From a virus (lineage: Duplodnaviria; Caudoviricetes), in the IMG/VR virus record IMGVR_UViG_3300022685_000036, positions 1 through 53,330 of that record: a stretch of DNA of 53,330 nucleotides. One strand, 5' to 3'. The position numbers and the translations under genes are program-made. This document shows positions 14,230-49,674 of the stretch, piece by piece (the first letter of the stretch is position 1; every line of letters starts with the position of its first letter). The notes below the pieces were generated by a model. That model saw nothing but the letters and a program-made list of their open reading frames with translations. It ran no database searches and was not told where the DNA came from.

Positions 14230-14418
14230 GTGATCAATAACATAAACGACTTTTTGCGCGAGGCGGCATATTCACTTGCGAACAGAGACATTGAGCGCAT
14301 CGACGAGCTTCGAGAGATAGTCCGAGGCTGGGCTCAAACGGAAGAAGAAGCGAAAGCTCAACTAGAGCTGCTCGAAGAAATCGCCCTGGCGATCGAAGTA
14401 ATTCCTGGCGGTGTTTAA
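14230..14418 (+). CDS. Hypothetical acidic protein
   Basis: RBS CTGGAGG; TAATG-coupled to dnaE C-terminal fragment. Confidence 0.65.
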   Translation: MINNINDFLREAAYSLANRDIERIDELREIVRGWAQTEEEAKAQLELLEEIALAIEVIPGGV

Positions 14419-29746: not shown

Positions 29747-29905
29747 ATGAAAGCTCCTGACGTCAAAGGAGGTCGCGTTCAGTTTACGGTGCGGTTACCG
29801 CCACAGCTGTACATCGAACTCTCGAAGCTCGCCAAAAAAGAAACACGCACAATGACCAGTTTGGTCGAAATCTCAATAAAGAGGTACCTTGATGAAAATC
29901 GCTGA
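29747..29905 (+). CDS. Arc-like ribbon-helix-helix regulator
   Basis: QFTVRLPPQLYIELSKLAKKETRTMTSLV. Confidence 0.75.
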   Translation: MKAPDVKGGRVQFTVRLPPQLYIELSKLAKKETRTMTSLVEISIKRYLDENR

Positions 29906-30431
29906 ATACAGCTCGGAAGCTGGCGGCACCGTAAAGCAGCTCAAAGAGACATCCATCCGTATGCTGGAGGCTGTCGTCCGCGGAGACTCGGATGGTTTTC
30001 GAGAAGAAGCCGAGTCGGTTCACACCCTAATTGAGCACATTCTCGGAATTGAGCATCGCCTATCCGGAAAAGCGAGCATGGCGATGAGTATCGACGATAT
30101 GTTCAACAAGTCTTTCACCGAACTGTCTTCCCGTATTCACAGCGACAACTACAAGAAAGGCTTCTGGCCAGACGAAATCGAGAGCCGCAACCCTGGTGAA
30201 GCGATCGCGCTGATGCACTCCGAGCTGAGCGAAGCGCTGGAGGCGTACCGCCACGGTCTACCGATGAGCGAGAAGATCCCCAACTTCAGTAACGCCGAAG
30301 AAGAGTTCGCGGACCTCATCATCCGTGTGATGGACTTCACAGGCGCGCATCGCATGCGCATCGCAGAAGCCGTCCTCGCGAAACTTGACTACAACCGTAG
30401 CCGCCCACAGAAGCACGGGAAGGAGTTCTGA
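29892..30431 (+). CDS. MazG-like nucleotide pyrophosphohydrolase
   Basis: IALMHSELSEALEA...EEEFADLIIRVMD...K..YN..RP.KHGK. Confidence 0.85.
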   Translation: MKIAEYSSEAGGTVKQLKETSIRMLEAVVRGDSDGFREEAESVHTLIEHILGIEHRLSGKASMAMSIDDMFNKSFTELSSRIHSDNYKKGFWPDEIESRNPGEAIALMHSELSEALEAYRHGLPMSEKIPNFSNAEEEFADLIIRVMDFTGAHRMRIAEAVLAKLDYNRSRPQKHGKEF

Positions 30432-30563
30432 CGAATGAGCGATTCGCTATTACTCGAATTAGGCGACACCTGCCCGTCCAGAAGTGGTGTGACTGCCGTG
30501 AGAGAGCGGCGCCTTTCAACGTCCTGGGGCATGTGGATGGAGCGTAAGCAATGAGTCACAGCA

Positions 30564-30776
30564 ATGGCTAACCATTACAACCATATTTTAGTTAGGTTTG
30601 AAGAGCCTGGGGTTGCTCCGTCAATTAAACGATACGAGCTACCTGAAGAGCCTTATGCGCAAGCTTTACTGCTAAAGGCTTTAAGCATGTCTCCTATCGT
30701 TAAAGATTTGGGTACAGTAATACAGGGTCATTGGAGTCCTATCAACACGGAAAAACAAAATGAAATAGACCACTAA
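30564..30776 (+). CDS. Hypothetical protein (AT-rich)
   Basis: ORF visibly lower in GC than flanks. Confidence 0.5.
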   Translation: MANHYNHILVRFEEPGVAPSIKRYELPEEPYAQALLLKALSMSPIVKDLGTVIQGHWSPINTEKQNEIDH

Positions 30777-30830
30777 ACCGGGAGAAGTCCGACACGCCCA
30801 AGCGCGGGCGCAGCCGCTGGAGATGAACCA

Positions 30831-31157
30831 ATGGAAACCAAGACTTGCACAAAATGTAACGATGTCAAGCCGCTGGAGATGTTCAGCAAACGCGCCAGCA
30901 GTCCGGATGGCTTTAATTCGTGGTGCAAGCAGTGCTATTCGGATTATAGGAAAAAACACGCCGCCCGGCAAAAGCCGAATCTGCCACCGCACCATATTAA
31001 AAAGTGTGGCAAATGCGGAAAGGCCAAGCCAGCGGCTGCTTTCTACAAGGATGTCTACAGCCTGGATGGACACACACACTGGTGCAAGCAATGCATCTTG
31101 GTTCGTCAGAGGGACTACGTCGCCCGGCTGAGAGAGCAAGCGCAGTCCCGGAGATAA
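30831..31157 (+). CDS. Double zinc-finger protein (HNH/EndoVII-associated type finger, no nuclease domain)
   Basis: Two K.C.KC...K....F......DG...WCKQC repeats. Confidence 0.75.
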   Translation: METKTCTKCNDVKPLEMFSKRASSPDGFNSWCKQCYSDYRKKHAARQKPNLPPHHIKKCGKCGKAKPAAAFYKDVYSLDGHTHWCKQCILVRQRDYVARLREQAQSRR

Positions 31158-31161
31158 GCTC

Positions 31162-31644
31162 GTGAAGACCATGACCGACAACGACTGGAGTGCCTTAGAG
31201 GCATCCATCAGGCACTGGCGGGACAACGAAGCCCGCCAGAAAGAAGATAAGGATCTTTCTGTTGGCATGGATGCCTGCGCGCTGTGCCAACTCCAAAAGC
31301 GGCGCGTGTGGAACGTCATTTCGAAAGCGTTCACCGACGAAGACGCAGGCGGGGTGGCGCCGACCGTCTGCTGCACGACCGCAGACGCGGAAGATGAGTA
31401 CGCGGAAGACTGGCCCATGGGGAGGACCATCAGCCCATGCGTCATCGCGGAATTCACAGGGCGTCCAAGTTGCGAAGGCACGCCCTATTACGATGCCGCG
31501 GCGGAAGAAATCCCCGCGTCGGTGATGACGCAGTGGCTGGAACAGCTTTATGCGCACATGCGCAACCCGGAAGTCAACGCGGCACCGGCGGTCAAGGACT
31601 CCTGGACCAACGAAGAGCCAAGCAGCGGGGTTTTCCGTGTCTGA
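31162..31644 (+). CDS. Hypothetical Cys-containing protein
   Basis: ALEASI.HW, CALC, CVI...C.GTPY. Confidence 0.65.
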   Translation: MKTMTDNDWSALEASIRHWRDNEARQKEDKDLSVGMDACALCQLQKRRVWNVISKAFTDEDAGGVAPTVCCTTADAEDEYAEDWPMGRTISPCVIAEFTGRPSCEGTPYYDAAAEEIPASVMTQWLEQLYAHMRNPEVNAAPAVKDSWTNEEPSSGVFRV

Positions 31645-31822
31645 GACCCCCTCCAAAGAGCAGATCGAGCGCGCCAGAAGCCTGGTCGCGCTGGCGCATT
31701 ACGTCGTCAATCATCTGATCGGGATCGGTATGCGGCTTGACTATGGTGGTCCTGCGATTTGCCTCCCCCAGCCCCAACTCTCCAAACAAAACGGATCTTT
31801 CTTCCAAGAGGAAAAGCAATGA
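31637..31822 (+). CDS. Hypothetical protein
   Basis: GTG start overlapping upstream gene; coupled to next gene. Confidence 0.5.
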   Translation: MSETPSKEQIERARSLVALAHYVVNHLIGIGMRLDYGGPAICLPQPQLSKQNGSFFQEEKQ

Positions 31823-32334
31823 ACTTCAACACTGTCACCGCCGCCGCGCTGGCCATCTCCCTGTCCGGCTGCGCGATCACCAAGCCGCCGGGGCGGACTG
31901 TCGAGGGCCGCCCCAGCAACCCCCTCGCCTACACCGCGGACGTGGCGCAGTCAGCAGATGCTGCCACCGCCGTTGCCGCGACTGTGCTGCCTGGATTTAT
32001 GGAGTTGAACCCCCTCGGGCTCATGCTGGTGCCGGTCAAGTTCCGCATGGCAGCCATGGCCGAGAACAACACGTCCGAGGACTGCGAGTCGGCCCAGAAG
32101 GCTATCGCCATCGGCGGCCTCGGTCCAGCGGCGTGGGGCGCCGTGCTCTTCGCCGGCGGCACCGTGGCCACCGCGGGCGCGGCGTTGGTGGCCGCGCCCG
32201 CGGCCCTGTGGGCGTCTGGCCTGCTCGACAAGAGCGCCGAGGCACGTTGTGCGGACGCCCGCCCGCTCACCAAGAAGGAGCGCACTGCGCTGACTGAGAA
32301 GATGGACGCTGACCGTGCGATGTGGGGGTTTTGA
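31819..32334 (+). CDS. Lipoprotein with hydrophobic Gly/Ala-rich segments
   Basis: Lipobox LSGC after MNFNTVTAAALAIS. Confidence 0.7.
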   Translation: MNFNTVTAAALAISLSGCAITKPPGRTVEGRPSNPLAYTADVAQSADAATAVAATVLPGFMELNPLGLMLVPVKFRMAAMAENNTSEDCESAQKAIAIGGLGPAAWGAVLFAGGTVATAGAALVAAPAALWASGLLDKSAEARCADARPLTKKERTALTEKMDADRAMWGF

Positions 32335-32376
32335 TGAAAGACTACAAACCTGCCAACCCAACCACAGGAGAATAAA

Positions 32377-32895
32377 ATGACCATCATCAACCTGACCCAA
32401 CACGCAGCCACGCCCGCCCAAAAGGCGGCGGGTGTCGTCGATGTCCACAACCGCGACGCGCTGACTCGCCTGCTGACCGTACAGGTTAGTGGGGAGTATG
32501 GGTTCTCGAGCCTGTCCAAGGAGGGACAGAAAGTGGTTCTGGACATGCGCGTCGGGCAGATCCTGTCCGAGTTCGTCTTCCCCGCCGTCACGGCAGAGCA
32601 GCGTCAGTACCTGGCCAGCATCTACGCAGCCGGTCAGAACGACTACCACGTCGACCCCGACGCGTGGGCGGCGGGACTGTCCCTCACCGAGCTGAGCCAG
32701 CTCGGAAAGCCGACCGTCAAGGCCATGATCGGCGGCTTCGCGCCGCTGGTCGCCAACCTGACCGAGCGCCTGAAGGGAATTGGCGTTCGGCCCGTGGTCG
32801 CCTTGAGCGACCGCGTGTCCAAGGAGGAAGCGCTTAGCGACGGCAGCGTCCGCAAAACACAAGCGTTCGTCCACTGCGGGTTCTACGAGTTGTAG
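32377..32895 (+). CDS. Csx20-like protein, candidate cyclic-oligoadenylate ring nuclease
   Basis: RBS AGGAG; IINLTQH.AT..Q and P..A.S.R.S.E....DGSV.K...F.H.GF motifs. Confidence 0.55.
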   Translation: MTIINLTQHAATPAQKAAGVVDVHNRDALTRLLTVQVSGEYGFSSLSKEGQKVVLDMRVGQILSEFVFPAVTAEQRQYLASIYAAGQNDYHVDPDAWAAGLSLTELSQLGKPTVKAMIGGFAPLVANLTERLKGIGVRPVVALSDRVSKEEALSDGSVRKTQAFVHCGFYEL

Positions 32896-32949
32896 GCCCG
32901 CATCAACAAACAGGCTGCGCGAGCGCGCAACCCCGACCGGAGCAACGAC

Positions 32950-33198
32950 ATGAGCGATCAACACTACGTCCTGCGGGGCGCCATCAGTGGTACACCGTTC
33001 GCATCTCAGGATGAGATGCCGGATGACTTCGGCCACCCCGTCGAGTGGGACGGCGAAGAGTGCTTCTGGGCACTCGAAACCGTAACTCCGCCGCGGCGCC
33101 ACTGCCCCGAGTGCGGCTCCGCGCCGTATGCGGCGCCGAACCCCCCAAAGGGCACCGATGTTCGGTGCCCCGAATGCGACACGAGGTGGATCGTATGA
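32950..33198 (+). CDS. Zinc-ribbon protein
   Basis: CPECG...CPECD. Confidence 0.65.
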   Translation: MSDQHYVLRGAISGTPFASQDEMPDDFGHPVEWDGEECFWALETVTPPRRHCPECGSAPYAAPNPPKGTDVRCPECDTRWIV

Positions 33199-33419
33199 AG
33201 ACCGACCCCAACCAGCGCCACCGCATGGCACTCAAGACCCTTCGCTGAGCAGCATTCCCGCTGCCTGTGTGGCGCACCGAGCCCGGCATGGATGGCCCGT
33301 CAGGCGATGTGTGGTTTGACAACTCCGGCCGCCTTCGCGCGACCGGCGGAGCCAACCAGCCTGCTACAAAATCAGATGAACGGCCGTACTACGGCCCCGT
33401 GGAGGACCACTCCGGATGA
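33195..33419 (+). pseudogene. ORF with a single internal TGA, N-terminally paralogous to the next gene
   Basis: MKTDPNQRHRMALKTLR*AAFP aligns to MNTDPRARQFRAIKTVERALFP; frame stays open to an ATGA overlap at 33416-33419. Confidence 0.6.
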
Positions 33420-33817
33420 ACACCGACCCAAGAGCCCGGCAATTCCGGGCGATCAAGACCGTTGAGCGCGCCCTGTTCCCCGAAAAGTGGGGCACGGGGA
33501 AGATCTTTCCTCTTGTGGACCTGACCCCGCAGGAGGGGCTCACCGTCTGGCGCGCGCCGGAGTCGCAGCCGCTGACCGAAAATGGCGGCACTATGTACAC
33601 GTACCCGGCTCTGATCTATGCGGAGCCGGAAGTCATCCACCTGGAGCGCGATAGCGGTCTAGAGTGGATGGCGAGCGCGTGGGGCGGCAAGCCCCGAACG
33701 TGCTTGTGGACGAAGTACATGCGCTTCGATCTCGACAGCGCCATGTACCGCTTGGCGCTGGCGTATCCGGGAGTGCGGATCGAAGTCCTCCCGGATGTTG
33801 ATCCGGACGAAGACTGA
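33416..33817 (+). CDS. Hypothetical protein
   Basis: RBS GGAGG. Confidence 0.7.
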   Translation: MNTDPRARQFRAIKTVERALFPEKWGTGKIFPLVDLTPQEGLTVWRAPESQPLTENGGTMYTYPALIYAEPEVIHLERDSGLEWMASAWGGKPRTCLWTKYMRFDLDSAMYRLALAYPGVRIEVLPDVDPDED

Positions 33818-33857
33818 CCACCCCGCCCGGCTTGGCCGGGCACAATAGGAGAACCCT

Positions 33858-34178
33858 ATGCCACAAGCTCCTTCGTACATACAAGCTAGGACCTGCTCGG
33901 ACGGCGATGGCTTATGCTGGCCCATCCCGCCCGAAGCAGGATTCTATGTCTTGTCAGCCCCTGGGGGGCACCGCTGCGCCCTGTACAAGAAGAACAAACC
34001 GACCCCGGTTCAGCACGGGATTGGGCAGCAGTACGATGGGCGCGCCACCCACGTGCCGAAACTGCTGGAAAACGCCCAGCTTGAGTTCGTTGCAGAGGTT
34101 GGCCCCACAGGGGGTTTCTTTTCAGAGCATGCGGCAGTTGATGCGGCGCTGCTACCACTGCGCGCCGCAGATGCGTGA
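33858..34178 (+). CDS. Hypothetical protein
   Basis: RBS AGGAG. Confidence 0.65.
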   Translation: MPQAPSYIQARTCSDGDGLCWPIPPEAGFYVLSAPGGHRCALYKKNKPTPVQHGIGQQYDGRATHVPKLLENAQLEFVAEVGPTGGFFSEHAAVDAALLPLRAADA

Positions 34179-34492
34179 CTGGGGTCGGATCGCCGTCCCG
34201 GCATGACACCCTTTCTCATTTTCGTCCGCGGTCAGTATCTAGGCGTCATCAACGCCGAACTGGACGGGGTTAGGCGGCGAGTGCCCGTCCGGCGACTATC
34301 GACAAAACCCCGCCAGTGCGCGGCGCTGACCTCCTCTTGTCGTGACCGACTCCAGGCAGCGCGCGTGCACCGTTCGCCCCACGATACGGGGCACAACCCA
34401 ACCCAATCTGAGAGACCATTGGCCATGACCATGAACTACAACGTCGTTTCAGCCGCCGCCGTGCCGGTCATCTCTCTGTCCGGCTGCGCGGT

Positions 34493-34906
34493 GTGGCGGT
34501 TGTGATAAACACAATCCTCATCCACCAACTCCCGCGCGCGGAAGATGGCACGCAGCAGTTCGCCGTGTGGGATGCCCGTAGTAGGTGGGACGGCTGGAAG
34601 CTAGGGTACTGCGTGGAGCCTGGACACTACGCGGTACACGCCGGAATCGTGCCGTTCGAGATTACCTCAGCAGGAACCTTCGACGACTGCACCCACTACC
34701 GACTAGAGAACCCCGACCATCAAAACGTGTACGTCACGTGCCAGACCGTCGAGCCCGACGGCACGCCGACGCCAGAGCAGGACGGCGGACCGGTCCCCGT
34801 GAGCACGGTATCGACGATGTATCTAATGATGGGCCTGCTCATCCTTGTCGCCGTAAGACTGCGGCGTAAAACTAACCTTGTAGAAAGCAAATGGCAAATC
34901 AAATGA
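34493..34906 (+). CDS. Protein with IPTL/PEP-CTERM-like C-terminal sorting signal
   Basis: Pro-rich linker then PVPVSTVSTMYLMMGLLILVAVRLRRK (motif, TM helix, Arg cluster). Confidence 0.55.
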   Translation: MAVVINTILIHQLPRAEDGTQQFAVWDARSRWDGWKLGYCVEPGHYAVHAGIVPFEITSAGTFDDCTHYRLENPDHQNVYVTCQTVEPDGTPTPEQDGGPVPVSTVSTMYLMMGLLILVAVRLRRKTNLVESKWQIK

Positions 34907-35187
34907 CAGACCTAGTGCCCTTGAATTACCAACCATATTTTGAAGATAAGGTTAAAGACTTGACTAAAAAAGAAAAAGCCGTTTTTATAAGAATCATAAG
35001 AGAAAGCAAACGAGACCAGATTGAAAGACTATTGAGAGCCATAAAAAACAAAGATAATGAAATGGCGAATGGTATGACCTACAGAATGAAACCAGAAGAC
35101 ACGTACAGGGCCAGAAAAATGGTCATCATTCTTAGCGAAAGTTTGAAAAACGAAGAAGACCTGGTAAGGGTTATGTACCCCTATTAA
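34891..35187 (+). CDS. Hypothetical basic protein (AT-rich)
   Basis: Markedly A-rich ORF. Confidence 0.6.
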   Translation: MANQMTDLVPLNYQPYFEDKVKDLTKKEKAVFIRIIRESKRDQIERLLRAIKNKDNEMANGMTYRMKPEDTYRARKMVIILSESLKNEEDLVRVMYPY

Positions 35188-35235
35188 AAAGAGAAACCTA
35201 CAGGCATTGAGAAGCCCTAACCCTTGGAGAGACAG

Positions 35236-35703
35236 ATGAAAGAATTGCAAGATCCTGGCCTGTGTGTAGAGCAGAGGTATTTCAACGCAAAGACGGTTTT
35301 GGGGCGCATGCTGGACATGGGTCGCATGCTCGACTGCCCCGCCACGTCAGCAAAGCGTGAGGCCGTGAAGGCGGTTCTGCGGGAAACCGGCGTTGACCTG
35401 CGCCCCATGTTGGCGTTTGCAGTGGCGGTCGGTGGCGAGCAGTGGCTGAGCCTGTCGGCGTTGCGCGCAGAGCTTGACGTGACATCGGAGGACCACATGA
35501 ACGAAATTCTGAAGTCGTTAGGGCTTCAGGACTGCATCGGTGGCGAGTGGGTGCCCGCGGATTCCGGCGCTGGGCTCTTCTGGCGCATGGTGCCCCGGCG
35601 CAAGGGTGCGCCCGTGAGCCACGGTGTTCAGTGGAACCTGACCGAAGTCCGTGCGCTTCTCGACGAAGCTGACAGCGAGGAGGACGACGACGATGCCGTT
35701 TAA
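35236..35703 (+). CDS. Antirepressor KilAC/ANT-like DNA-binding protein
   Basis: MNEILKSLGLQ..IGGEWVP..SG...VQW resembles KilA-C-type winged helix. Confidence 0.5.
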   Translation: MKELQDPGLCVEQRYFNAKTVLGRMLDMGRMLDCPATSAKREAVKAVLRETGVDLRPMLAFAVAVGGEQWLSLSALRAELDVTSEDHMNEILKSLGLQDCIGGEWVPADSGAGLFWRMVPRRKGAPVSHGVQWNLTEVRALLDEADSEEDDDDAV

Positions 35704-36076
35704 GGAGGGCCATCCGGGCAGACCAAGCGCCTTCACGACGCGCCTTCAGGACGGCGCAGTGTTCGAAGAGATTGGGGTTGTCGTGCTGGCCTTGCTCCCC
35801 GAGGAGGGCAAGCCGCGTTCAGACTGGAGTGTTCAGATTGAGCGCCGATGTTGCGGCAAGATCGAGACCATCAGGGTCAAGGCCCTACGCTCGCGCCTGA
35901 CGAGCGTTGTCCACCGCCCAAGCATGTTCCCGCACATGTGCCGCAGCTGCGCAGACGCGGCAAAGAAGGATGGCACTATGCGTTCGGCGCAGTCCGCGAA
36001 AAGCGCCTGGCGCCCGACCAGCGCGGCCTGGGGCGCCAGGTGGAGTTATTATGCTGACGGAGGTAATAAGCCATGA
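35693..36076 (+). CDS. Hypothetical Zn-binding protein
   Basis: CCGK...CRSC. Confidence 0.55.
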   Translation: MPFKEGHPGRPSAFTTRLQDGAVFEEIGVVVLALLPEEGKPRSDWSVQIERRCCGKIETIRVKALRSRLTSVVHRPSMFPHMCRSCADAAKKDGTMRSAQSAKSAWRPTSAAWGARWSYYADGGNKP

Positions 36077-36282
36077 GCAGCTTTTTATGTGAGCATTGCG
36101 GCGCGATGGCCATGGACACCAGCCGCGGCTGTGAGCACCACGAGCCAAATGTGCCGACACATGCGCTGACGACAGACGAGATGCGCTGGTTGATAGACGC
36201 GCGCAATCGTGTGGCACTGATCTATAGGCCACACCTAGACAGCCTGGAGTTTCAACTCAGGAATCGCGAGGTCCTACGATGA
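36073..36282 (+). CDS. Hypothetical protein
   Basis: RBS GGAGG; CEHCG. Confidence 0.6.
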   Translation: MSSFLCEHCGAMAMDTSRGCEHHEPNVPTHALTTDEMRWLIDARNRVALIYRPHLDSLEFQLRNREVLR

Positions 36283-36479
36283 AAATGACGTTCGAAAGCT
36301 TCTCAGTAAACGGAGAATTGTTGCCCAGCCAAGAATGGGAAGTGTACACCTTGCGGGTCGATAGAGACCACAACGAATATGCGCTAAACATCTGGGTACT
36401 GGAAGATAACGGCAAAAGCACCCTCTTGATGTTGACGCAGGATCAGCTTGACAGGGCCATTGATAACGGCTGGAAATAG
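36279..36479 (+). CDS. Hypothetical protein, last gene of plus arm
   Basis: ATGA-coupled; converges with tail operon. Confidence 0.6.
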   Translation: MKMTFESFSVNGELLPSQEWEVYTLRVDRDHNEYALNIWVLEDNGKSTLLMLTQDQLDRAIDNGWK

Positions 36480-36498
36480 CTGAGCCCGCGCTGCACCA

Positions 36499-36951
36499 TC
36501 ACACAGTAAAGATCCGAGTCTCCAGCTCATCTCCCGATACCGCCCAAAGTGCTAGGGTCAAGGAAGACCCTGTCACTGTGTAGTCTACTCCGTTTGTCAG
36601 TATCGACCCATTCAACGCTACTTCAACCAGCATTGAACTAGCGGGCGTCGTCGTGAGCGCAAACGCTGTTTGACCGGCAGTGGCGGTGAAGTGCTCTGTT
36701 GCAATGGCCCCGACGCTGGTATTGTTCAAGCGAGACAAAGCTTCTGCCAGCGTGATAGAAGATGCTTGGGGATAGTTTAAAGTACACATCTGCCCTGCGG
36801 GGCCGGTTATAACACATCGCAAAAAACCAGCAACCCCAGCAAGAACGGAAATTGTTTTATATACACCTGTGCCGAGTTCCGAAAGCTGTTGCTTTGCTTT
36901 GTCAGCAGCGTCACAAACACACTGGATACATGACTGAACCGTATTGACCAC
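36499..36951 (-). CDS. Tail-associated protein with small beta domain
   Basis: FTATAGQTAF...VALNG..L..GVDYTVTGSSLT. Confidence 0.7.
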   Translation of the reverse strand: MVNTVQSCIQCVCDAADKAKQQLSELGTGVYKTISVLAGVAGFLRCVITGPAGQMCTLNYPQASSITLAEALSRLNNTSVGAIATEHFTATAGQTAFALTTTPASSMLVEVALNGSILTNGVDYTVTGSSLTLALWAVSGDELETRIFTV

Positions 36952-36952
36952 G

Positions 36953-37378
36953 TTAACCTCCGTAAGACTTTACCAAAACCAGATCGCCAGGCGATAGCCC
37001 AATACTGAATGTAAGGGTAGACCCAGTGACATTATAATCAATGCCACTTGTCATCATAGAGCTGTTCACAGTAACCCTGACTGGCTTCAAAGGAGTCTCG
37101 GGAAGAATAAGTACAGTTTTCCCAGGCTGGTCTTTGTTGTACCACGACCAAAGGTTAAACCCCTCGTCCAACCCCCCAACTACCCTGGACATGAGGTTTT
37201 GAAAACTTGCTCCCTCCTGCCCACTAGGAAAAGTTACGTAGCCACCTAAGGGCGAAACCCATTTAAATATAGGTTCGATATTTCTAAACCAATATTCAGT
37301 AAAGGCGTTTAGGACGGTCTCAGTTGCTGAGCTAATCGCCTCACAGAAAGTGTTACAACATTCAGCCATTAGGGTCAC
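36953..37378 (-). CDS. Tail-associated protein, C-terminal domain paralogous to previous gene
   Basis: VTVNS....GIDYNVTGSTLTF..L..GD.V. Confidence 0.7.
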   Translation of the reverse strand: MTLMAECCNTFCEAISSATETVLNAFTEYWFRNIEPIFKWVSPLGGYVTFPSGQEGASFQNLMSRVVGGLDEGFNLWSWYNKDQPGKTVLILPETPLKPVRVTVNSSMMTSGIDYNVTGSTLTFSIGLSPGDLVLVKSYGG

Positions 37379-37922
37379 TCCACGCCGCAGCGTCGCCTGC
37401 GGTTTGATGTAATTGGATCCAGTTTACTGGGTCTGCTAAATTCACCTCAAAGACCAAACATTCGGTTAGTTTTTCTTGATACAAGCAAAGCCAACAATCC
37501 ATGTCTATCTTGTACTGCTCGGCCTGTACGGCTACCTCCCAAACATTCTCGGTTAATAGATTAACCTGCCAATCAGAAATATACCTAATCGGGTGTTCGG
37601 AAGGATGCCATACCGGGCATTGACCAGTGACCATGGGCAAAAAGTGCCACCCGTAACCATGCTTGTTTGCGAACGCTTCCCATGCATGCAATTGATCTGT
37701 TGTTAGAGTCCAAGTCAAGTCATAGGTGGTCGGTCTGTCGCTAAACAAGCGGCGCTGCCTTGCATACCCAGTGGCAACTGACGTTCGGATTATTCCGGCA
37801 TTCACTGAGTAACTGAAAGCCGAAATGCTTGGGCATGGCAAATTATAATCAACTGTGCTAATTAAGCCGCCTGCACAGGGTTCACCGCTAACGACATCTA
37901 GTGTCTCTATACAAGTAGTCAT
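37362..37922 (-). CDS. Minor tail protein (distal-tail/gpM-like)
   Basis: LPCP..S.FS....IIRT...TGYARQRRLF..RP...LTW. Confidence 0.7.
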   Translation of the reverse strand: MTTCIETLDVVSGEPCAGGLISTVDYNLPCPSISAFSYSVNAGIIRTSVATGYARQRRLFSDRPTTYDLTWTLTTDQLHAWEAFANKHGYGWHFLPMVTGQCPVWHPSEHPIRYISDWQVNLLTENVWEVAVQAEQYKIDMDCWLCLYQEKLTECLVFEVNLADPVNWIQLHQTAGDAAAWSDPNG

Positions 37923-40363
37923 GCGTAAGCCCTCTCATCGTACTCAAAGGCAATGACGGATGTCTTTGTTCCACCAGTGTGACGTACTTCAGACACTACA
38001 CAAAGAACTGGACTCTTGTTCAAAGGCACTATGTTTATTACGTCTCCTGGGTTCAAAATAAGTGCATCTAGCTCAGAATTGAATTTCCAAGTAAACCTAC
38101 TAAATTGGCTCTTATTCCAGATCTTTCTAGCCCTGGCCACTGCTGTATCGTTACAGGTACAACCTATCAGCTTAACTGAACGTGGGCGCACACTGGTACT
38201 TGGGTACAAAGCGTAAGCCGGTTCATAAGTTATCTCGTCACGGTATTCTATTTCCACTCCGTCTTCATCGGTTCTGTTTCCCAAAGCATAAGTAACACTA
38301 AGCGAATTTTCTTCAATAAGTCCGCCGCTAGTTTGACCTTCTACAAAAGACATGACGGGGACAAGATTAGGATTGTCGTCAATCAAAACTAGCTCAGAGC
38401 CGCGAGGGAAAATGCGATAGTCTGCGGCATTTGCTACCGTTTGCAGGGCCTCCCATACATTGGATTGAAAATCAAACACAGCGTTAAAAGACCCGGAAAG
38501 GGTCCCCTCAATTAGGCTTGAGTTTTGGTTTGCCCCGTATTTCACATTTGACCATATATCAATAAAAGCATCCTGGGCAGAGGTAGTGTCAGCCCCGTTG
38601 AGTTTGCGAGTGCAAGATACTGAAATCCTATTCAAAGCGTTACTGCTAACGCCGTTAGTCGCTTTGATCTTCATTGCTAGTAGGGTAACGTCTCCATACC
38701 CCTTCCCCCCATATTGAGCGTAGACGAACCCTTTCAACCCAGTCCAAAGCACCCTGTCAACAACTCTTGAGTCATTCTCAGATGCGGCGCTTGTTCTGGC
38801 AAATCTTACCAAGTAGTAGTCACCGGAAGGGACAATAAGCCCATTCGTTCGCCTTTGCGGGGTAGTTGTCGCTAGAGTCTCGTTCCAGGTGGTTGAGATA
38901 GTGGGGGCGCCAGTAGGGTTCCCGTCTTGGTCTATTTGTGTTGCCTCCAGCAAAAAGTCTACGCTGTTTGACTCTAGCTCCCCCGACTCCTTATTTACTT
39001 TATAGAGCCCGCCGGGGAACACGTAGTCAATTTCAATAGTGCCTATTTCCTGCCCAGGTCCGCCCACTATGAACTGTTGTAAAGTAGAGACGTCATAGTA
39101 AATAAACGACACGGGGTCGCCGACAGAAGAAGCGGCTTTTTCTATATCGATGTCGGTATAAATGACCCAGTCTGGCGAAGAGAAAGTATTTGCGCCTGTT
39201 TGGGTTATATTTGTCAGGGTCAAGACGTAGTTAATTGCTATCGCCCCAATCTCTCCAGAGATAACGTAATCAGAAGCCCCGCCAAAAGAGACAGTTAACG
39301 CGTCACCTGTTTGTGTGTTATCAACCAATTTCTTAAAGTTGTCGAAATTAAGCACGTTAATCTCTAAGTCGCCGTTTACTATTCGAGCGTCCCCTCTCAA
39401 TGCGCTAAAGAGCAAGAAAGGTTGATCAAGGGTGGCTGGCGAAATTGTAATCTGTGAACCGTTTACAGTCTCAATAGTGTGGGGAACACCGAAAATGTAT
39501 ATCGTAGTACCGATAGGGGGAATATCGGCTGTGGTAACGTCAATTGCATCGGCAGCTAAAATCGTACCAGAACTAGACAATTCTGTTGGTGTTTCCAATT
39601 CAATGTCAGAAACTTCAATAGAAGTGATGACATTTTCTGGAAAGCCCCCAATAGTATCCACAAAATCGGAGTCTATAAAGCCGATTGTCTGTGTATGGTC
39701 AGTAGGGCTATACGATTTGTAGCTCACTGAGCCAGGAGCCAACCGGTTGACACTTGTGTTAGAAATATAAATATCAGAAATACCGTACTCTCCTTGACCG
39801 AGACAGAACAGCAAAAACACCCATTGGTTATTTTCGTGATATTTTGACCATGCTTGTGTTGCATAATCAGGAACTATTCTATTTTTCCCGTAAGCTACGG
39901 GGATTGAGTCACCAAGTCTAACTTGATTTTGCGGGACAGCTAGGTTATACACAGACTCTGCTTTCGGCAGAGACACTTGAGATGGTGAAGACGCGACATC
40001 TAGTTTTGGAGCGCTAGGGGCTAGGGCGTAACTGACCGCTGTAGATACGACCGCCACAGCAAGCGCAGCAAGCACCGGGCTCGCAGCCACAGCACTAACA
40101 ACAGCACCAACAGCGGCTGCCACGGGTGCGCCTGGAGCCACAAGCAGCACCACTTCGTCGCCCGGGGCAAGCACCAGGCCATAATCTTCAACAGGAAGAG
40201 GGGCCTTGTTTAGAAATGTTTGATGGCTGCCCGGGAAACCCTCAGGATAAAACTTGTTCAAAAAGCCGCTCTGTCCATCATTCGAACAGTAGGGGCCTAC
40301 CCATTCTCTGATTTGGTAGTCAGATGGGTTCAGCGGATTGTCAACAATGATTATCCTAGCCAT
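37919..40363 (-). CDS. Tail tip / central fibre protein (gpJ-like)
   Basis: N.VRLG..IPV.YG...PD, LGQGEY, FPGGL, FNAVFD, DGVEIEY.D, L.PGD.I. Confidence 0.85.
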   Translation of the reverse strand: MARIIIVDNPLNPSDYQIREWVGPYCSNDGQSGFLNKFYPEGFPGSHQTFLNKAPLPVEDYGLVLAPGDEVVLLVAPGAPVAAAVGAVVSAVAASPVLAALAVAVVSTAVSYALAPSAPKLDVASSPSQVSLPKAESVYNLAVPQNQVRLGDSIPVAYGKNRIVPDYATQAWSKYHENNQWVFLLFCLGQGEYGISDIYISNTSVNRLAPGSVSYKSYSPTDHTQTIGFIDSDFVDTIGGFPENVITSIEVSDIELETPTELSSSGTILAADAIDVTTADIPPIGTTIYIFGVPHTIETVNGSQITISPATLDQPFLLFSALRGDARIVNGDLEINVLNFDNFKKLVDNTQTGDALTVSFGGASDYVISGEIGAIAINYVLTLTNITQTGANTFSSPDWVIYTDIDIEKAASSVGDPVSFIYYDVSTLQQFIVGGPGQEIGTIEIDYVFPGGLYKVNKESGELESNSVDFLLEATQIDQDGNPTGAPTISTTWNETLATTTPQRRTNGLIVPSGDYYLVRFARTSAASENDSRVVDRVLWTGLKGFVYAQYGGKGYGDVTLLAMKIKATNGVSSNALNRISVSCTRKLNGADTTSAQDAFIDIWSNVKYGANQNSSLIEGTLSGSFNAVFDFQSNVWEALQTVANAADYRIFPRGSELVLIDDNPNLVPVMSFVEGQTSGGLIEENSLSVTYALGNRTDEDGVEIEYRDEITYEPAYALYPSTSVRPRSVKLIGCTCNDTAVARARKIWNKSQFSRFTWKFNSELDALILNPGDVINIVPLNKSPVLCVVSEVRHTGGTKTSVIAFEYDERAYA

Positions 40364-40737
40364 CTTAAAACCTTTTGCTTTTTATAGCCAAGCCGGTAGA
40401 GTACTCTGGGGTCTATCCTTATTACTCCGGCTTGCCCCTTGGTTATGTGCAGGACACTGCTTTCATCAACAAAAGGACAAACGTGAGCCCATTGTCTTGA
40501 AGTCCCGCATATTAATACATCGCCCTTTTTTGGGTGGGAGACTTCTTGCCATTTTGGAGACGCCCTGCTGTTTTCTATGTATTCATTTATTACTTCGAAA
40601 TCCATTTTTCCAAAGCTTAGCACGTAATCACAATTGATACCTAACCGAGACATAACTTCCAGAGTCAGCCCCCAACAGTCGTAAGCATTTGGCCCACGGC
40701 CCTGCCACTGAAACGGTTTTCCGATCAAATCATTCAT
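40351..40737 (-). CDS. NlpC/P60-like tail assembly protein
   Basis: IGKPF..GRGP..YDCWGL, GD, H. Confidence 0.85.
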   Translation of the reverse strand: MNDLIGKPFQWQGRGPNAYDCWGLTLEVMSRLGINCDYVLSFGKMDFEVINEYIENSRASPKWQEVSHPKKGDVLICGTSRQWAHVCPFVDESSVLHITKGQAGVIRIDPRVLYRLGYKKQKVLRWLG

Positions 40738-41225
40738 CTTCTAGTCAGACCCGGGTAAAGGTCCGGTCTATAAAGTTCTCTAGGAAATCTTGCGTTGAAT
40801 ATGTCCACCCTAGTGGCAGTCCCAGACATGACGAACGTGTCTAATGTCAAATCCGTTAGACTAAGATCCCAAGGAGGATCGTACTGCGGGTCTAGCACCC
40901 CTTTGATGTATTGGGTAACGCGACACCGGATTGGCTCTTCAGGTCTATTACGAACATTCTGAAGAGCATTCCACATCTCTTCACCTATATTGCAAACCCG
41001 AATGCTTAAATCCTGCTGTCCCTCTGCATCCACAACAGGGAGCACAACTTCAAACGGTATGGGTTGGAAAACCCGATTAACCCCTTCAAACAAACCAGTT
41101 TGTGCTTGATGGTCATTCGTCAAAAAATATGAACCAGCAGCGCTATGAGAAAGAATAAGAGCGTCCCACCAGTCTACGTCAACTTCACTAGTGTAGCGCT
41201 GCTGCATTTCTGGTGACAAAGCCAT
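40734..41225 (-). CDS. DUF1833-like minor tail protein
   Basis: L.HS...F.P.PFE..LP, N.RFP...Y....YPGL. Confidence 0.8.
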   Translation of the reverse strand: MALSPEMQQRYTSEVDVDWWDALILSHSAAGSYFLTNDHQAQTGLFEGVNRVFQPIPFEVVLPVVDAEGQQDLSIRVCNIGEEMWNALQNVRNRPEEPIRCRVTQYIKGVLDPQYDPPWDLSLTDLTLDTFVMSGTATRVDIFNARFPRELYRPDLYPGLTRR

Positions 41226-43651
41226 TATCTACCCCTTCGTAACTTATAAGCTTGGTCCAACGCGCGGGCTGTAGAATTGCCGCCACGTTGTATCCGATCA
41301 TCCATTTGCCCAATAGCAATTTCGATTATTTCGCGGTCACCAAGTTGTCGTGTCCGACGGCTAACGTCTTCACCAGAGTAGTTATTTATCACCACTTCAG
41401 TTCCGCCGCCTTGGACCCCAAGCTTGCCATCGGCGCCACGCTTCAGTGGTAGCACGGCCTCGGGACCTGCCTCACCCAGTACGCCGCCTTGTGCATACCG
41501 CTTCAGCGGCCCCTCGCTAGGCATGGTGAAGTAGGTAGGCTGCGCATAAACGCCCTGCGGTAGCGGCAGGCTGGAGAAAGCAGCGCCCTTGGCAAAACCA
41601 AACAGCCCGCCAAGCACACCGCCCAAAAGACCACCGCCACCGCCACTACCAAACAGCGCAAACCGTAGCGCAAGCTTGGCGATATCAGCCGCTAGACCGC
41701 GGAGGGCGTCCTTTAGCTTAAAGGTCCCTTCCACGGCCCGATCAATCCAGGAACCAAAGCTAACCGTAAGGTTTTGCCCGACGCTCTGTGCAAGCGTGTT
41801 TGTCGCTTCTACAGCTTGTAGAGCGCCCTCACTTGCAGCAAAGTAAGCGGCTTGCGCTTGCTGTGCTGCACGAACAAACGTCTCTTGATCTAGCCCACTA
41901 TCGAGCAAGCCGCGCAACCTTTCAAGCGTTGCGGCATACTGCTCTGCCGGGGTACGGGTGCTTTGATACACCTGTTGGATTTCGTTTAAGACTTGCCCTT
42001 GCCTTTGAATAGCTTGCGCGGCATCGTCGCTAACAAAGGCTAGATTACCAGTCGCAGCAGACAGGCGCTCGTAGTCTGGTATGATATTTTTTACATAACC
42101 TTGTGTTTCTGCAAACGGGGGCACACCGCCAAACTTTTGAACGTTTCCGATCCCTGCATTATAAGCGGCAAGGGCAAGTTCTACATCCCCACCAAGTTGT
42201 TTTAGCCGTTTGGCAATGTAGAACGCGCCACCTTCAATGTTGGCTGAAGCGTCGTTCACCAATCGCTCAAAGCTAATGCCGGTTTGTCGTGCAATATCCC
42301 GTGCGGTGCCGGGCATTAACTGCATGACACCGATTGCACCTTTTGTCGACCGAGCAACCTTGTTAAAACCAGACTCCTGTTTGGCCAGCGCTACAAGGAG
42401 GTTTCGATCAACCCCGAATTTCTGTGCGGCAGCAGTAAACGCTTCCGCCTGACTGCGGAACCTGGCGGCCTGTGCGCTAGTCAGCTTGAGGGACTGAACT
42501 ACTGTGTCAGCCCATTGCTCTACTTCAGATGCCTGCCCAGATAAGCTACCACCTCCGGTCACGTCCGGTATTTCCGGTAACGAAACAGGCGCCACATCTG
42601 ACACAGCCGGGGCAGAAGCCGCGAGTTGATTGCGGCGCAGAATTAGGGATTCTAATTCGTCTCGGTATTTAGCGAGAGCTTTTCGTGCCTCTTCTAAAGC
42701 ATTGTCAGAGCCAAAAGTACGTTGGAAAAATCCAACGAACCCGCCGCCGCTGTCGGACGAAAGGTTTGTTATTTCCGTTGTTACTTGTTGAATTTTCCGT
42801 TGAACTTCACTTATGTCAACGTCTAATTGGTAGGTAGTGGTTCCACGCCCAAGGTCATCCAAACCACGGAAACGTGCCACAAGAGTGTCTATAAACTGGA
42901 CTACGTTAACTACGGCATTGCGCCAAACAGTTTGCAAACGTTGTGCTGTTTCTGTAAATCTTGTCTCTAGTTCGGCAGCAGCGGTAATTGCCTCCTGCCG
43001 AATAACACGACCTTGCCTAGCAAGCTCTTCTGTAGTTTCCGCGATTGTCCCATTCAAATTGCCAAGCGTTTGCCCTAGCTTCACCCCTTCAGTGTCGAAT
43101 GCTGCCATTGCAACCCGGTTGCGTTCGGCAGGGTCCTCAATGCCGGACAAAACACGACGAAATTCTTCCAGCAGGGTATTGACGCTTTTTTGATTCCCTT
43201 CAACATCATTAAGCGTTACGCCGTATTGCTCGAATACCTTAGCTAGCACCCCGGAATCTTGACGGGCTTCTGCAATCCGGCGGCTAAATCTTTGCAGGGC
43301 TGTGTCAGTGGCGCTAAAAGAGAGCCCGACTTTTTCAGCTTCAAACCTAAGGGCCTGAATTGCTTCAACACTGACACCAACTCGGTCAGCAGTGTTATTA
43401 AGCTCGTCGGCAAATTGCGTAACGCTGCGAAGTGACTGAACGCTAAATGCGCCTGCGAACCCAAAGGCAAACCCTTTTGCAAGGTTGCCAAGTAAGCGCA
43501 TGGATTTACCGACACGATCAATGCTAGTTTCCACATTGCGCATTGACTTAGCAGTTTTCGCGCTGCTGCGATCAATGTTCTGTAGCGCCCGCTGCCAGCC
43601 AGTTGTGTCAGCGGTGTACTTGCGGACAATTTCTAGTGTTTGCCTAGCCAT
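41225..43651 (-). CDS. Tape measure protein with embedded lytic transglycosylase (SLT) domain
   Basis: QESGF...GA.G.MQLMP.TA, LAAYNAG, PPFAETQGYV; C-terminal GEAGPEAVLPL.RG.DGKLGV. Confidence 0.92.
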   Translation of the reverse strand: MARQTLEIVRKYTADTTGWQRALQNIDRSSAKTAKSMRNVETSIDRVGKSMRLLGNLAKGFAFGFAGAFSVQSLRSVTQFADELNNTADRVGVSVEAIQALRFEAEKVGLSFSATDTALQRFSRRIAEARQDSGVLAKVFEQYGVTLNDVEGNQKSVNTLLEEFRRVLSGIEDPAERNRVAMAAFDTEGVKLGQTLGNLNGTIAETTEELARQGRVIRQEAITAAAELETRFTETAQRLQTVWRNAVVNVVQFIDTLVARFRGLDDLGRGTTTYQLDVDISEVQRKIQQVTTEITNLSSDSGGGFVGFFQRTFGSDNALEEARKALAKYRDELESLILRRNQLAASAPAVSDVAPVSLPEIPDVTGGGSLSGQASEVEQWADTVVQSLKLTSAQAARFRSQAEAFTAAAQKFGVDRNLLVALAKQESGFNKVARSTKGAIGVMQLMPGTARDIARQTGISFERLVNDASANIEGGAFYIAKRLKQLGGDVELALAAYNAGIGNVQKFGGVPPFAETQGYVKNIIPDYERLSAATGNLAFVSDDAAQAIQRQGQVLNEIQQVYQSTRTPAEQYAATLERLRGLLDSGLDQETFVRAAQQAQAAYFAASEGALQAVEATNTLAQSVGQNLTVSFGSWIDRAVEGTFKLKDALRGLAADIAKLALRFALFGSGGGGGLLGGVLGGLFGFAKGAAFSSLPLPQGVYAQPTYFTMPSEGPLKRYAQGGVLGEAGPEAVLPLKRGADGKLGVQGGGTEVVINNYSGEDVSRRTRQLGDREIIEIAIGQMDDRIQRGGNSTARALDQAYKLRRGR

Positions 43652-44385
43652 TACCTATTCCATCGCCGGCGCCGGCCCTGTGGACGTTTGCGGAATTGCA
43701 AACCAGTACGGCCGCGCATACTATTTAACTGCCCTATCCAGATTACAGGCGAAGGGTACGAAAAACCTTTTGTACCGAGTTCAGAAACTTCGTTAAGATA
43801 ATCCATTCTTACGTCATAATTTTTACTCCTGGCTCGAGTTTGCACTTTACTAAATGTGCGTCTAAAAACATTTCTAGACCGCATATTTTCAAGCGCACTA
43901 GCATACGCGGCGATGTTTGTTACTCCAGCAACAGTCCATTGCCCTTCGTCTCCTTTAGGTAGGCCACGACTTACTGTACGGCCCACCACGTACCGGAAAG
44001 AGGCCCGGTAGTTACCTGTACTGGCAAACGGGGAAGAAGCCGTCACGAGCGCTTGATACAGCCACCGCAGCTCTTCTGTTAGGTCTGGACGAGCGAACTG
44101 TCCTGCTGGCGTCAGCACAGCAACACTAGCCCAAGGCATTTTTTCTAATAACCTAGCTTTGCTGCCTTCATAGTCTTTAATGTTATTCAGCCCAACGCGC
44201 CCGTCAACGATTTCCGGTATCTGCCCCCTCACCTCGTCTAAGGTTGTTACCCTAACCACGTCTTCTAGGCGCTCAGAATCCATAAACGCTTTCACACTCT
44301 TAAACTCATCAACACCTAAGACGGCCAAGGCTGACCGGTTCCCGGCGGAAAAAAGGTCTTTGTCTTTTATGAAGGTTTTTGCCAT
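43651..44385 (-). CDS. Putative neck/tail-completion protein
   Basis: SP..TG.YR.S and N.A.YA..LE resemble HK97 gp10-like motifs. Confidence 0.5.
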   Translation of the reverse strand: MAKTFIKDKDLFSAGNRSALAVLGVDEFKSVKAFMDSERLEDVVRVTTLDEVRGQIPEIVDGRVGLNNIKDYEGSKARLLEKMPWASVAVLTPAGQFARPDLTEELRWLYQALVTASSPFASTGNYRASFRYVVGRTVSRGLPKGDEGQWTVAGVTNIAAYASALENMRSRNVFRRTFSKVQTRARSKNYDVRMDYLNEVSELGTKGFSYPSPVIWIGQLNSMRGRTGLQFRKRPQGRRRRWNR

Positions 44386-44857
44386 TATCCAAACCCAAAA
44401 GCTTTCGCCAGAGCATTTTCGTCCATTTCTTCGGGGTCTTGCTCTCCACGCTCTAACATAGCCTTCTTTTCAAAGAACGTCTGCCACTTTACGAACTCTG
44501 GCAAGGTCATCTTTTCGCACATCTCTCCAACCGTCATCTTCAACTCCCACGCGAGAAAGTATAAGAACTCTTCGGTGGGAGCTAGTCTTTTCCCTCCTCT
44601 TCCTGCGGCATGAGTTTATTCATGGCAGAAAGCAATGGAAGCACCGCCGACATGCCAAAATCGCCTAACTGTTCTGACGTAACCCGTTGGTTGTCCACAT
44701 AGAGCATTTTAGACAAATACTCTAGCGAAACTTCCAACCCCTCTTCTTTGGCGCCGATAGTTTTTTGCGCTGATACAAAATCCCGCATGGTCATTTCACG
44801 AAGCTCCACAGTGTTGCCAAGCGGAGAATTTGGAATGTGAATAACTTTGAGGTTCAT
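44385..44857 (-). CDS. Tail assembly chaperone G (44582-44857) and -1 frameshift product GT
   Basis: Slippery G GGA AAA at 44594-44588; -1 frame reads RLAPTEEFLYFLAWELKMTVGEM...EFVKWQTFF to TAA at 44385. Confidence 0.85.
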
Positions 44858-44912
44858 TTTCTGCTCGTTTAATGTGGCTGTAACAGCGACGCGCTATTAC
44901 AGCCATGCTAAG

Positions 44913-45269
44913 TCAATACTGGCTTTCGCCAGCGCCGATGTCCTCGAACACAGTGACGGTAGACATGTCACCATCAACGTCCAGCGTAATGTCGATGGAC
45001 GACTCCACCATGGAGCCGGAGCCGGTCATTTCGTCGGCGATGATTTCCACGACCTCGTCGACCGATTCCGTCGGAACTGTGATGGTCGTCACCACCATCA
45101 TGTCGGTGTCGGTGCCGACCACGGACAGGTCCATGTCCAGGTGCGGGGTGCCCTCCAGGCTCTCTTCGATCTGGTCGTAGAGGTCTTCGCTGATGATGCC
45201 TTCGGCGGCGTGGTGCGCGGCGACAGGGGCGGCGAGGACCGCCAGCAGAGGCAAAACAAAGTATTTCAT
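44913..45269 (-). CDS. Secreted acidic protein (moron-like), His-His mature N-terminus
   Basis: Signal peptide MKYFVLPLLAVLAAPVAA then HHAAEG; GC-rich inside lower-GC tail module. Confidence 0.7.
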   Translation of the reverse strand: MKYFVLPLLAVLAAPVAAHHAAEGIISEDLYDQIEESLEGTPHLDMDLSVVGTDTDMMVVTTITVPTESVDEVVEIIADEMTGSGSMVESSIDITLDVDGDMSTVTVFEDIGAGESQY

Positions 45270-45311
45270 ACACATCTCCGTCAAGTACGCACGTACCTGT
45301 GCAAAATACGC

Positions 45312-46307: not shown

Positions 46308-46311
46308 TAAT

Positions 46312-46671
46312 CTAGCCTCCAAAAGTAAACGATGATGTGATGCGGTATACCCGCATAGCGGCGTCATAGTCTTCGAACACGGAATCCGGCGCCGCTTTGA
46401 ATGCCCGGAATACCGCAGTCATTTGCCGGTTTAGCTCACGCGCCCCAGCATAGTCGTGGTGGAGACAGTCAACGATGTAACTGTCGGTGAGCGACGCATC
46501 AGCGTCACAGAAGTTCTCCAGGTCCGCGCCGCTGAACTGCTCACGGCTGAAGATAACATAAGGCGTGCGCACCGGTTGCAAGTCGTCTGCCTGCGGTGCG
46601 TGTAGCCGGTAGACAGGCACGGGTGCCACTTGGGCGGCCATTGCTTGGTAGAGCGCGGCTTCGCCGTTCAT
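46312..46671 (-). CDS. Tail terminator (DUF3168-like)
   Basis: ALYQ...VY...AP...PYVIF; position. Confidence 0.75.
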   Translation of the reverse strand: MNGEAALYQAMAAQVAPVPVYRLHAPQADDLQPVRTPYVIFSREQFSGADLENFCDADASLTDSYIVDCLHHDYAGARELNRQMTAVFRAFKAAPDSVFEDYDAAMRVYRITSSFTFGG

Positions 46672-49147: not shown

Positions 49148-49157
49148 GGGGTAAACC

Positions 49158-49673: not shown

Positions 49674-49674
49674 C

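Follow-up and report, generated by a model that had tools for sequence, protein, structure and literature searches.

The virus record IMGVR_UViG_3300022685_000036 (Caudoviricetes), a whole record of 53,330 bases that is rated 100% complete and that we analyzed in full as "the window", carries on its + strand a gene for a 172-amino-acid (aa) protein homologous to the CRISPR-associated ring nuclease Csx20. The reading that we favor, and regard as rather likely, is that this protein, carried by the phage, is a diverged representative of the small CARF-like ring nucleases of the Csx20/MJ1673 family, working as a homodimer that cleaves cyclic tetra-adenylate (cA4) and counters type III CRISPR signaling. 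The mechanism would run as follows. The protein would pair as a symmetric homodimer, with H9, Q15, R146, K160 and H166 beside the two-fold interface, where they would form a pocket for cA4. The dimer would need no metal to cleave cA4 into linear products, in keeping with what is published on Csx20. Produced during infection from the + strand block of replication and accessory genes, the enzyme would remove the cA4 synthesized by the Cas10 of a host type III CRISPR system, and the cA4-activated effectors Csx1, Csm6 and Can1/2 would then remain off. The protein would thus be an anti-CRISPR (Acr) working like AcrIII-1 with a different fold. An anti-defense enzyme functionally analogous to AcrIII-1, which is what a first-pass annotation of this DNA had proposed, appears to be the best-supported reading of the evidence below.

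The gene and its homology to Csx20

The gene and the parts of its product that enter the argument are, in window coordinates:

32377..32895, + strand: Csx20-like gene, 172 aa, stop included (open reading frame (ORF) list, NCBIfam, PADLOC, hhalign, dN/dS)
32366..32370, + strand: Shine-Dalgarno-like AGGAG with a 6-nt spacer to the ATG at 32377 (read from the sequence)
32383..32421, + strand: N-terminal strand and loop motif, aa 3-15, I-x-N-L-T-Q-H-x-x-T-x-x-Q, with the invariant H9 and Q15
32488..32712, + strand: long-form helical region, about aa 38-112, with helices at 48-86, 94-99 and 103-107 (alignments, AlphaFold2 (AF2))
32725..32736, + strand: MIGG strand and loop, aa 117-120, aligning to Q-G-D-F-G of Csx20, with G120 invariant in both groups
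32788..32889, + strand: long C-terminal beta-hairpin, aa 138-171, with R146, K160, F164 and H166 (AF2, Csx20 profile matches)

The upstream gene (ORF 31759-32334) stops with a TGA at 32332-32334, and the start codon of the Csx20-like gene is backed by homologues that open with an M-x-I-I-N-L-T-Q-H motif. We compared the gene with its 85%-identical homologue in L002 and L003, two other viral contigs whose Csx20-like genes are identical to each other. This gave a dS of 0.56, a dN of 0.077 and a dN/dS of 0.14, indicating that the gene is real and under purifying selection. A chance frame in GC-rich DNA was ruled out by this ratio together with 296 homologues and a confident predicted fold. A promoter and terminator scan near the gene returned nothing exceeding the shuffled expectation. 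The three motifs from which the first-pass annotation had recognized the family are all present in the translation (N-terminal INLTQHAATPAQ, MIGG at aa 117-120 and C-terminal PVVALSDRVSKEEALSDGSVRKTQAFVHCGF), and the Csx20 patterns that it had given agree with the consensus of 16 Csx20 proteins (S/N-H-x-L-T-x-x-Q; PVYATTKR...E...DG..V.K...F.H.RF).

Searches of profile libraries pointed to a single family. In NCBIfam, the sole family at E<=10 was NF040559 (CAS_Csx20), matched over aa 120-170 with an E value of 5.1e-5 and 23.6 bits, and the same model was matched by 10 of 10 homologues tested, at 24-36 bits, compared with 124-165 bits over the full length for bona fide Csx20. In PADLOC, only Csx20-type models matched (E 5.3e-5 and 2.3e-3), with two bona fide Csx20 proteins taken as positive controls (L124, L137) scoring 130-158 bits. 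A search of the window protein against the Pfam library gave no family at E<=10, since the release used predates PF27247; precomputed PF27247 annotation is carried by the window protein and by all 120 listed homologues. The ESM Atlas gives the name of PF27247 as 'MJ1673' (Pfam 38.1), and the nearest ESM Atlas clusters are 60-82% viral among members of known taxon, their scores of 0.81-0.85 serving as leads only. MJ_1673 is reported as a small protein tied to type III-A loci of Methanococcales (PMC3973734). A control search found NF040559 above its cut-off in Methanocaldococcus jannaschii, and MJ1673 is presumably that match. PF27247 was not named in the literature that we searched by full text. 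PHROGs gave one match at chance level (E 0.27) to a family of unknown function.

We then compared alignments of whole groups. For the family, we built an alignment of 50 sequences (A1) and one of 40 short-form relatives (A3). Bona fide Csx20 proteins were taken from the phylum of G309, a Campylobacteraceae metagenome-assembled genome (MAG), in which 38 of 301 genomes contain an above-cut-off match, because 0 of 300 genomes of Cyanobacteria, the phylum of genome G001, did so. The resulting alignment (A2) holds 16 of the 25 retrieved Csx20 proteins (NF040559 138-165 bits) after removal of near-duplicates, of a single truncated locus and of an ORF whose start was over-long; as it represents one phylum, the invariance seen in it is perhaps overstated. 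The Csx20 proteins of this comparison are linked to CRISPR: Cas10 lies 1-7 kb from Csx20 in four of five genomes checked, and on another contig in the fifth, a fragmented MAG. Aligned with hhalign, A1 matched A2 with a probability of 98.1 (E 9.5e-14, 57 columns, window aa 115-172), and A3 matched A2 end to end over 120 columns (probability 98.1, E 7.6e-14). A joint alignment of 19 sequences revealed H9, Q15, G120, R146 and F164 to be invariant and G156 and H166 to be nearly so, with G120 aligned to G75 and E150 to E105 of Csx20. Across the 50 family members, N5, T7, H9, Q15, R146, K160 and H166 are invariant. By these profile comparisons the resemblance to Csx20 is beyond chance, and homology is sound at the level of the superfamily (Csx20/MJ1673, PF27247). 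The Csx20-type assignment of the first-pass annotation was therefore borne out by NF040559, PADLOC, the shared invariant residues and the profile comparison against Csx20 that it had called for.

The activity of Csx20 that the first-pass annotation had named is likewise on record: Csx20 is reported to degrade cA4, and also cyclic tri-adenylate (cA3) at 10 uM, a tenfold higher enzyme concentration (PMC12409355). The same source reports that Csx16 degrades cA4, and that Csx20 is the commonest ring nuclease, with 78 loci. An earlier prediction that Csx16 and Csx20 act as ring nucleases was based on their conserved His, Arg and Asp/Glu residues (PMC8284326). Further background is given in PMC13148439 and PMC12830947.

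A mainly viral clade, the long form and its predicted dimer

To describe the family around the window protein, we used a word-indexed database search, which yielded 296 relatives among 590 candidates, and an exhaustive HMMER search, in which 890 clusters made at 50% identity passed E<=1e-3, with 69 of them still passing E<=1e-10 and 2 passing E<=1e-30. A quick IQ-TREE phylogeny was calculated from 111 rows, after ORFs outside 100-200 aa and identical copies had been dropped. Apart from Csx20 itself, it contains 95 rows, comprising 62 viral and 32 cellular sequences and the window protein, with viral and cellular rows interleaved. The window protein pairs with its L002 homologue on a long branch. 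In this tree, the window protein belongs to a separate, mostly viral clade of the Csx20/MJ1673 family.

Where the short forms and Csx20 have a single helix, the window protein carries about 50 additional residues, placed after the second strand region and before the MIGG strand. Its N-terminal motif and MIGG lie 112 aa apart. Of 227 family proteins measured, a set biased toward relatives of the window protein, 144 have a spacing of 50-69 aa and 50 have one of 85 aa or more. The AF2 model calculated from A1 (pLDDT 93.0, predicted template-modeling score 0.84) consists of a small alpha/beta core, a 39-residue helix (48-86) with two short helices, and a long C-terminal beta-hairpin with strands at 138-152 and 158-171, which is the segment that matches the Csx20 profile. 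Within the insertion, aa 81-110 have a pLDDT of 75-77. The model of a short-form relative (P0092; pLDDT 97.0) contains the same elements minus the insertion. The window protein thus resembles Csx20 in its hhalign probability of 98.1%, in the shared invariant H, Q, G, R and F with a near-invariant H, and in its small size; the short form also has the same order of secondary-structure elements. It differs in length, at 172 aa against about 126 aa for Csx20, the excess being the helical insertion of about 50 aa.

A complex predictor supported a symmetric homodimer of the window protein, with an ipSAE of 0.63 (0.64, 0.63 and 0.60 in individual runs) against 0.00 for the best of three controls. Contacts agreed between runs at 96% or more, and the pLDDT of the partner was at least 81. 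In the calibration of the predictor, this mark was reached by 20 of 30 proteins with structures solved as pairs and by 1 of 23 solved as single chains; as the window protein was run with our own alignment, these counts apply only approximately. The predicted interface comprises aa 36-39, 43-44, 51, 119, 122-123, 126, 141, 143-145, 147, 165, 167-168, 170 and 172. These residues border R146 and H166 and include the start of the insertion.

Unusual architectures were also observed in the family (P0047, P0126, P0131-P0149). They include tandem duplications, with four matched stretches in proteins of 261-668 aa. P0047 is fused to a C-terminal helix-turn-helix (HTH) domain, and the P0126 match lies inside a protein of 4564 aa. 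The tandem-duplicated members fit a dimeric working unit.

Distribution of the clade and the link to type III CRISPR

We collected loci of the clade with one peptide pattern, which gave 116 viral-contig loci from 138 pattern matches, of which 80 were kept, and, by the same approach, 41 loci in species-representative genomes from 66 pattern matches. The cellular carriers include many MAGs of the Candidate Phyla Radiation (CPR) and DPANN groups and several Pseudomonadota. Across 122 loci, the commonest neighboring family occurs in 10 and none is conserved, as expected of a free-floating accessory gene; the neighbors include terminases, a TrmB/MarR-type regulator, AAA_24 proteins and helicases. 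Phage hallmarks lie near two of four cellular loci inspected, in the form of a large terminase (L094) and a phrog_62 helicase (L084).

The clade is rare in cultured phages: of 50,697 records, the window protein matched one, Pasteurella phage Pm86 (aa 107-169, 42% identity), and the short-form P0092 matched two, Rhodothermus phage RM378 and Pasteurella phage Pm86 (57%). In RM378 (NC_004735.1), positions 325-714 encode a full-length homologue of the clade, annotated as hypothetical, with 38% identity to P0092 over 99% of its length. In plasmids, the clade was found in 3 of 72,556 records. In Pm86 (L149, MH238467), positions 309-699 hold an unannotated 66-aa ORF that corresponds to the C-terminal half of a Csx20-like protein, followed by a 71-aa ribbon-helix-helix (RHH)-like ORF; this record appears either to lack the N-terminal half or to carry it in disrupted form. 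The pair looks like the published csx20-aca14 operon of anti-CRISPR type (PMC13551039), in which csx20 homologues from phages and prophages of Pasteurella multocida are proposed as counter-defense genes. This match speaks for an anti-CRISPR role of the clade. The P. multocida homologues share with the window gene the divergent clade, a location on mobile elements and the proposed function; the window gene differs in encoding the long form and in that no RHH or HTH gene was detected beside it.

The association with type III CRISPR was assessed through Cas10, which was found above its curated cut-off in 11 of 36 cellular carrier genomes. In Pseudomonadota, Cas10 is present in 6 of 11 carriers, compared with 34 of 300 genomes sampled from the phylum (odds ratio 9.4, one-sided Fisher p 9e-4). 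For this background, genomes were drawn evenly, both Cas10 models were united and the center genome was excluded. G309, the genome that contains locus L118, carries a bona fide Csx20 on contig C64 (138 bits) as well as a member of the clade on contig C76 (34 bits), with Cas10 on a further contig (C110), apart from both.

Several observations weigh against a cA4 ring nuclease directed at type III CRISPR. At the level of sequence, the 16 Csx20 proteins are split from the 95 clade members by a long branch with 100% support in the quick tree, and the window protein misses the equivalog threshold of NF040559, with its 23.6 bits against a curated cut-off of 70. Residues that are invariant or near-invariant in Csx20 (D69, Q74 and F77 of the Q-G-D-F-G region, Y96, T98 and R125) are replaced in the window protein, and its substrate or chemistry may therefore differ. 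At the level of structure, Foldseek returned 0 matches to the PDB at E<=1e-3 for either the window or the short-form model. With the short-form model, the Crn1 ring nuclease Sso2081 (8htw_B) ranked eighth (E 0.072, probability 0.93, TM 0.39), aligned over 84 columns with a root-mean-square deviation of 4.4 Å and surrounded by generic Rossmann-like matches; with the window model, cA4-bound Cam1 (E 0.14) and Sso2081 (E 0.29) were likewise not significant. A PDB sequence search with the family profile gave chance-level matches only (E>1), and a Foldseek search of BFVD gave only three matches at E<=1e-3, all uncharacterized phage proteins. The first-pass annotation had looked to a profile or structural likeness to Csx20 or to a CARF-like ring-nuclease fold: the likeness to the Csx20 profile was found, whereas the fold match in the PDB was not. 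At the level of genomes, Cas10 above the cut-off was absent from 25 of 36 carriers, many of them incomplete MAGs, and from all 15 carriers with small genomes (0.6-1.5 Mb, mostly CPR/DPANN). The enrichment in Pseudomonadota rests on 11 genomes and takes no account of relatedness or genome completeness. In seven of seven genomes for which the contigs are known, Cas10 and the homologue lie on different contigs, and the homologue is therefore not a gene of the cas locus. The 18 ORFs neighboring the window gene include no HTH or RHH regulator of the type associated with anti-CRISPRs (Aca), as judged by Pfam, and the published titles and abstracts that we found contain no experimental test of a phage Csx20 homologue. 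A cA4-signaling type III system in the host of the window phage is an assumption of this reading.

The replaced residues and the missing Cas10 could also mean that a nuclease of the same fold acts on another messenger, such as cA3, the cyclic oligonucleotides of cyclic-oligonucleotide-based antiphage signaling systems (CBASS), cyclic hexa-adenylate or several of these, in which case the protein would be an anti-CBASS or broad anti-signaling enzyme. We consider this unlikely. In its favor, Csx20 itself accepts cA3 at the higher enzyme concentration (PMC12409355), the Q-G-D-F-G-region residues and Y96, T98 and R125 are replaced in the clade, the insertion of about 50 aa reaches the predicted interface (aa 36-39, 43-44 and 51) and could reshape the pocket, and the 15 small-genome carriers lack a detected Cas10. 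The only characterized relatives nevertheless favor cA4 (PMC12409355), Cas10 is enriched in the Pseudomonadota carriers, and no link to CBASS was seen, although no search aimed at CBASS was made.

A broader version of this idea takes the window protein to represent a branch of the Csx20 fold that is large and found mainly in viruses. Its long form, with the insertion at the predicted dimer interface, may have an altered or widened range of substrates; it would then destroy cyclic-oligonucleotide immune signals in general and serve even phages whose hosts have no type III CRISPR, as in the CPR/DPANN carriers. We doubt this. Equally doubtful to us is its corollary that the cas-linked Csx20 would be a minority branch, as has been argued for Crn2 and AcrIII-1. 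Hidden Markov model screens that start from cas-linked Csx20 largely miss the clade because its members score only 22-41 bits.

The loss of several positions invariant in Csx20 would also suit a sponge, that is, a protein binding a cyclic nucleotide with slow cleavage or none, as proposed for Csx15. This seems very improbable, since two His, an Arg, a Lys and a Gln are invariant in 50 family members and all of them except K160 are kept in the active Csx20, H166 nearly so; conservation of this kind is seen more typically where a site catalyzes than where it only binds. A cA4-cleaving enzyme directed at type III CRISPR remains the reading that we prefer.

Genomic setting and relation to known counter-defense genes

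The setting in the window is that of a phage accessory gene. The - strand genes encode a portal, a major head protein, a large terminase, a primase, a tail protein and a tape-measure protein with a lytic domain. The + strand encodes, in order, a DNA polymerase, an SNF2-type helicase, a YqaJ/RecE-like exonuclease, a MazG-like pyrophosphatase and an Stc1/Lar-like zinc protein, after which the Csx20-like gene sits within a run of small + strand ORFs without assigned function. Profile searches found no Cas10 of either type in the 53-kb window, which also contains no CRISPR-like array and no tRNA. The description in the first-pass annotation of a gene in a phage accessory region with no cas genes thus agrees with what we found in this complete phage genome, and the window gene differs in this respect from Csx20, which lies beside cas genes.

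Two further features of this region are:

31762..36249: mosaic accessory cassette of 4.5 kb that holds the gene and is common to L002 and L003 (blastn, 94.7% identity)
32950..33198, + strand: downstream ORF of 82 aa with weak zinc-ribbon matches (Pfam Zn_ribbon_4, E 1.3e-3, below the cut-off)

Outside the cassette, the L002 locus (11.6 kb) has no blastn match to the window, and L002 and L003 are otherwise unrelated to it. Within the cassette, identity is 100% over 33300-35250 and about 76% over 35550-35700. The most diverged stretch is 32400-33150, which covers the Csx20-like gene and the zinc-ribbon ORF at 80-90% identity to L002; the ORF itself, at 80-85%, is as diverged as the Csx20-like gene. 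This pattern resembles the outcome of a recent recombination, one boundary of which would lie close to 33300. A megablast search with positions 30000-36000 found no match in the cultured phages, and a tblastx search against all collected loci, made for clues to the host, matched only the shared cassette.

Just upstream in the same block, positions 29889-31157 hold the MazG-like pyrophosphatase (phrog_3301) and the Stc1/Lar-like zinc protein (phrog_5558, 'Lar-like restriction alleviation'), which may be further counter-defense genes. Two paralogous lipoprotein-type signal peptides ending in L-S-G-C are encoded at 31819-31875 and 34431-34489, with a cross-match of about 81%. They lie within ORFs 31759-32334 and 34203-34505, the second of which ends soon past the lipobox and extends into the beginning of ORF 34493-34906. 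Both ORFs may encode phage lipoproteins, for example superinfection exclusion proteins. Elsewhere in the window, GC content drops from about 0.62-0.65 to 0.45-0.52 over the tail-gene module (36000-50000), and this fall suggests a different origin of the module. The DNA polymerase ORF (14418-17318, 966 aa) contains an internal endonuclease-like match (phrog_2340, aa 524-578), which may be an inserted HNH-type domain.

The position of the gene after those for the helicase, the exonuclease and the pyrophosphatase raises the question of a role outside defense signaling, as a small phosphoesterase or nucleotide binder in phage nucleic-acid metabolism, or as a ligand sensor that regulates phage genes. 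The HTH fusion of P0047, the generic nature of the Rossmann-like Foldseek matches and the many carriers without Cas10 could be taken the same way. We nonetheless regard such a role as improbable: Csx20 is the sole family found in three of four profile libraries (NCBIfam, PADLOC and the precomputed Pfam PF27247), the PHROGs match being at chance level; the variable neighborhoods and the mosaic cassette fit an accessory gene and not a core metabolic one; and a homologue occurs in a published operon of anti-CRISPR type (PMC13551039). We retain counter-defense through cA4 cleavage as the preferred function.

For that function, the closest comparison is AcrIII-1/Crn2 (DUF1874), described as a small dimeric phage enzyme that destroys cA4 (PMC12830947, PMC12409355). 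The families are unrelated, and the proposed analogy is one of function and not of membership. Membership in Crn2/AcrIII-1 was rejected, there being no DUF1874 match at the E<=10 of the Pfam search. Crn1, represented by Sso2081, is not significantly similar to either model, nor is any PDB chain similar by sequence. A survey of 28,114 phage genomes reports AcrIII-1 in 36, Csx20 in 4 and Csx16 in 2 (PMC12409355).

Phage homologues of Csx20 as candidate counter-defense genes have thus been published (PMC12409355, PMC13551039), and what is new here is the divergent long-form member. What makes it of interest is how large the mainly viral clade is, together with the insertion and a function that is still putative. 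Anti-CRISPRs directed at type III systems are reported to make up three of more than 80 Acr families (PMC11662646), and the demonstration that Csx20 is a ring nuclease dates only from 2025. The present analysis yields a well-defined candidate with named residues. If the clade is active, cA4-degrading counter-defense in phages would be far commoner than the reported 4 of 28,114 genomes, and the clade would add to AcrIII-1 another viral ring-nuclease fold, in which the insertion offers a natural variant for studies of specificity.

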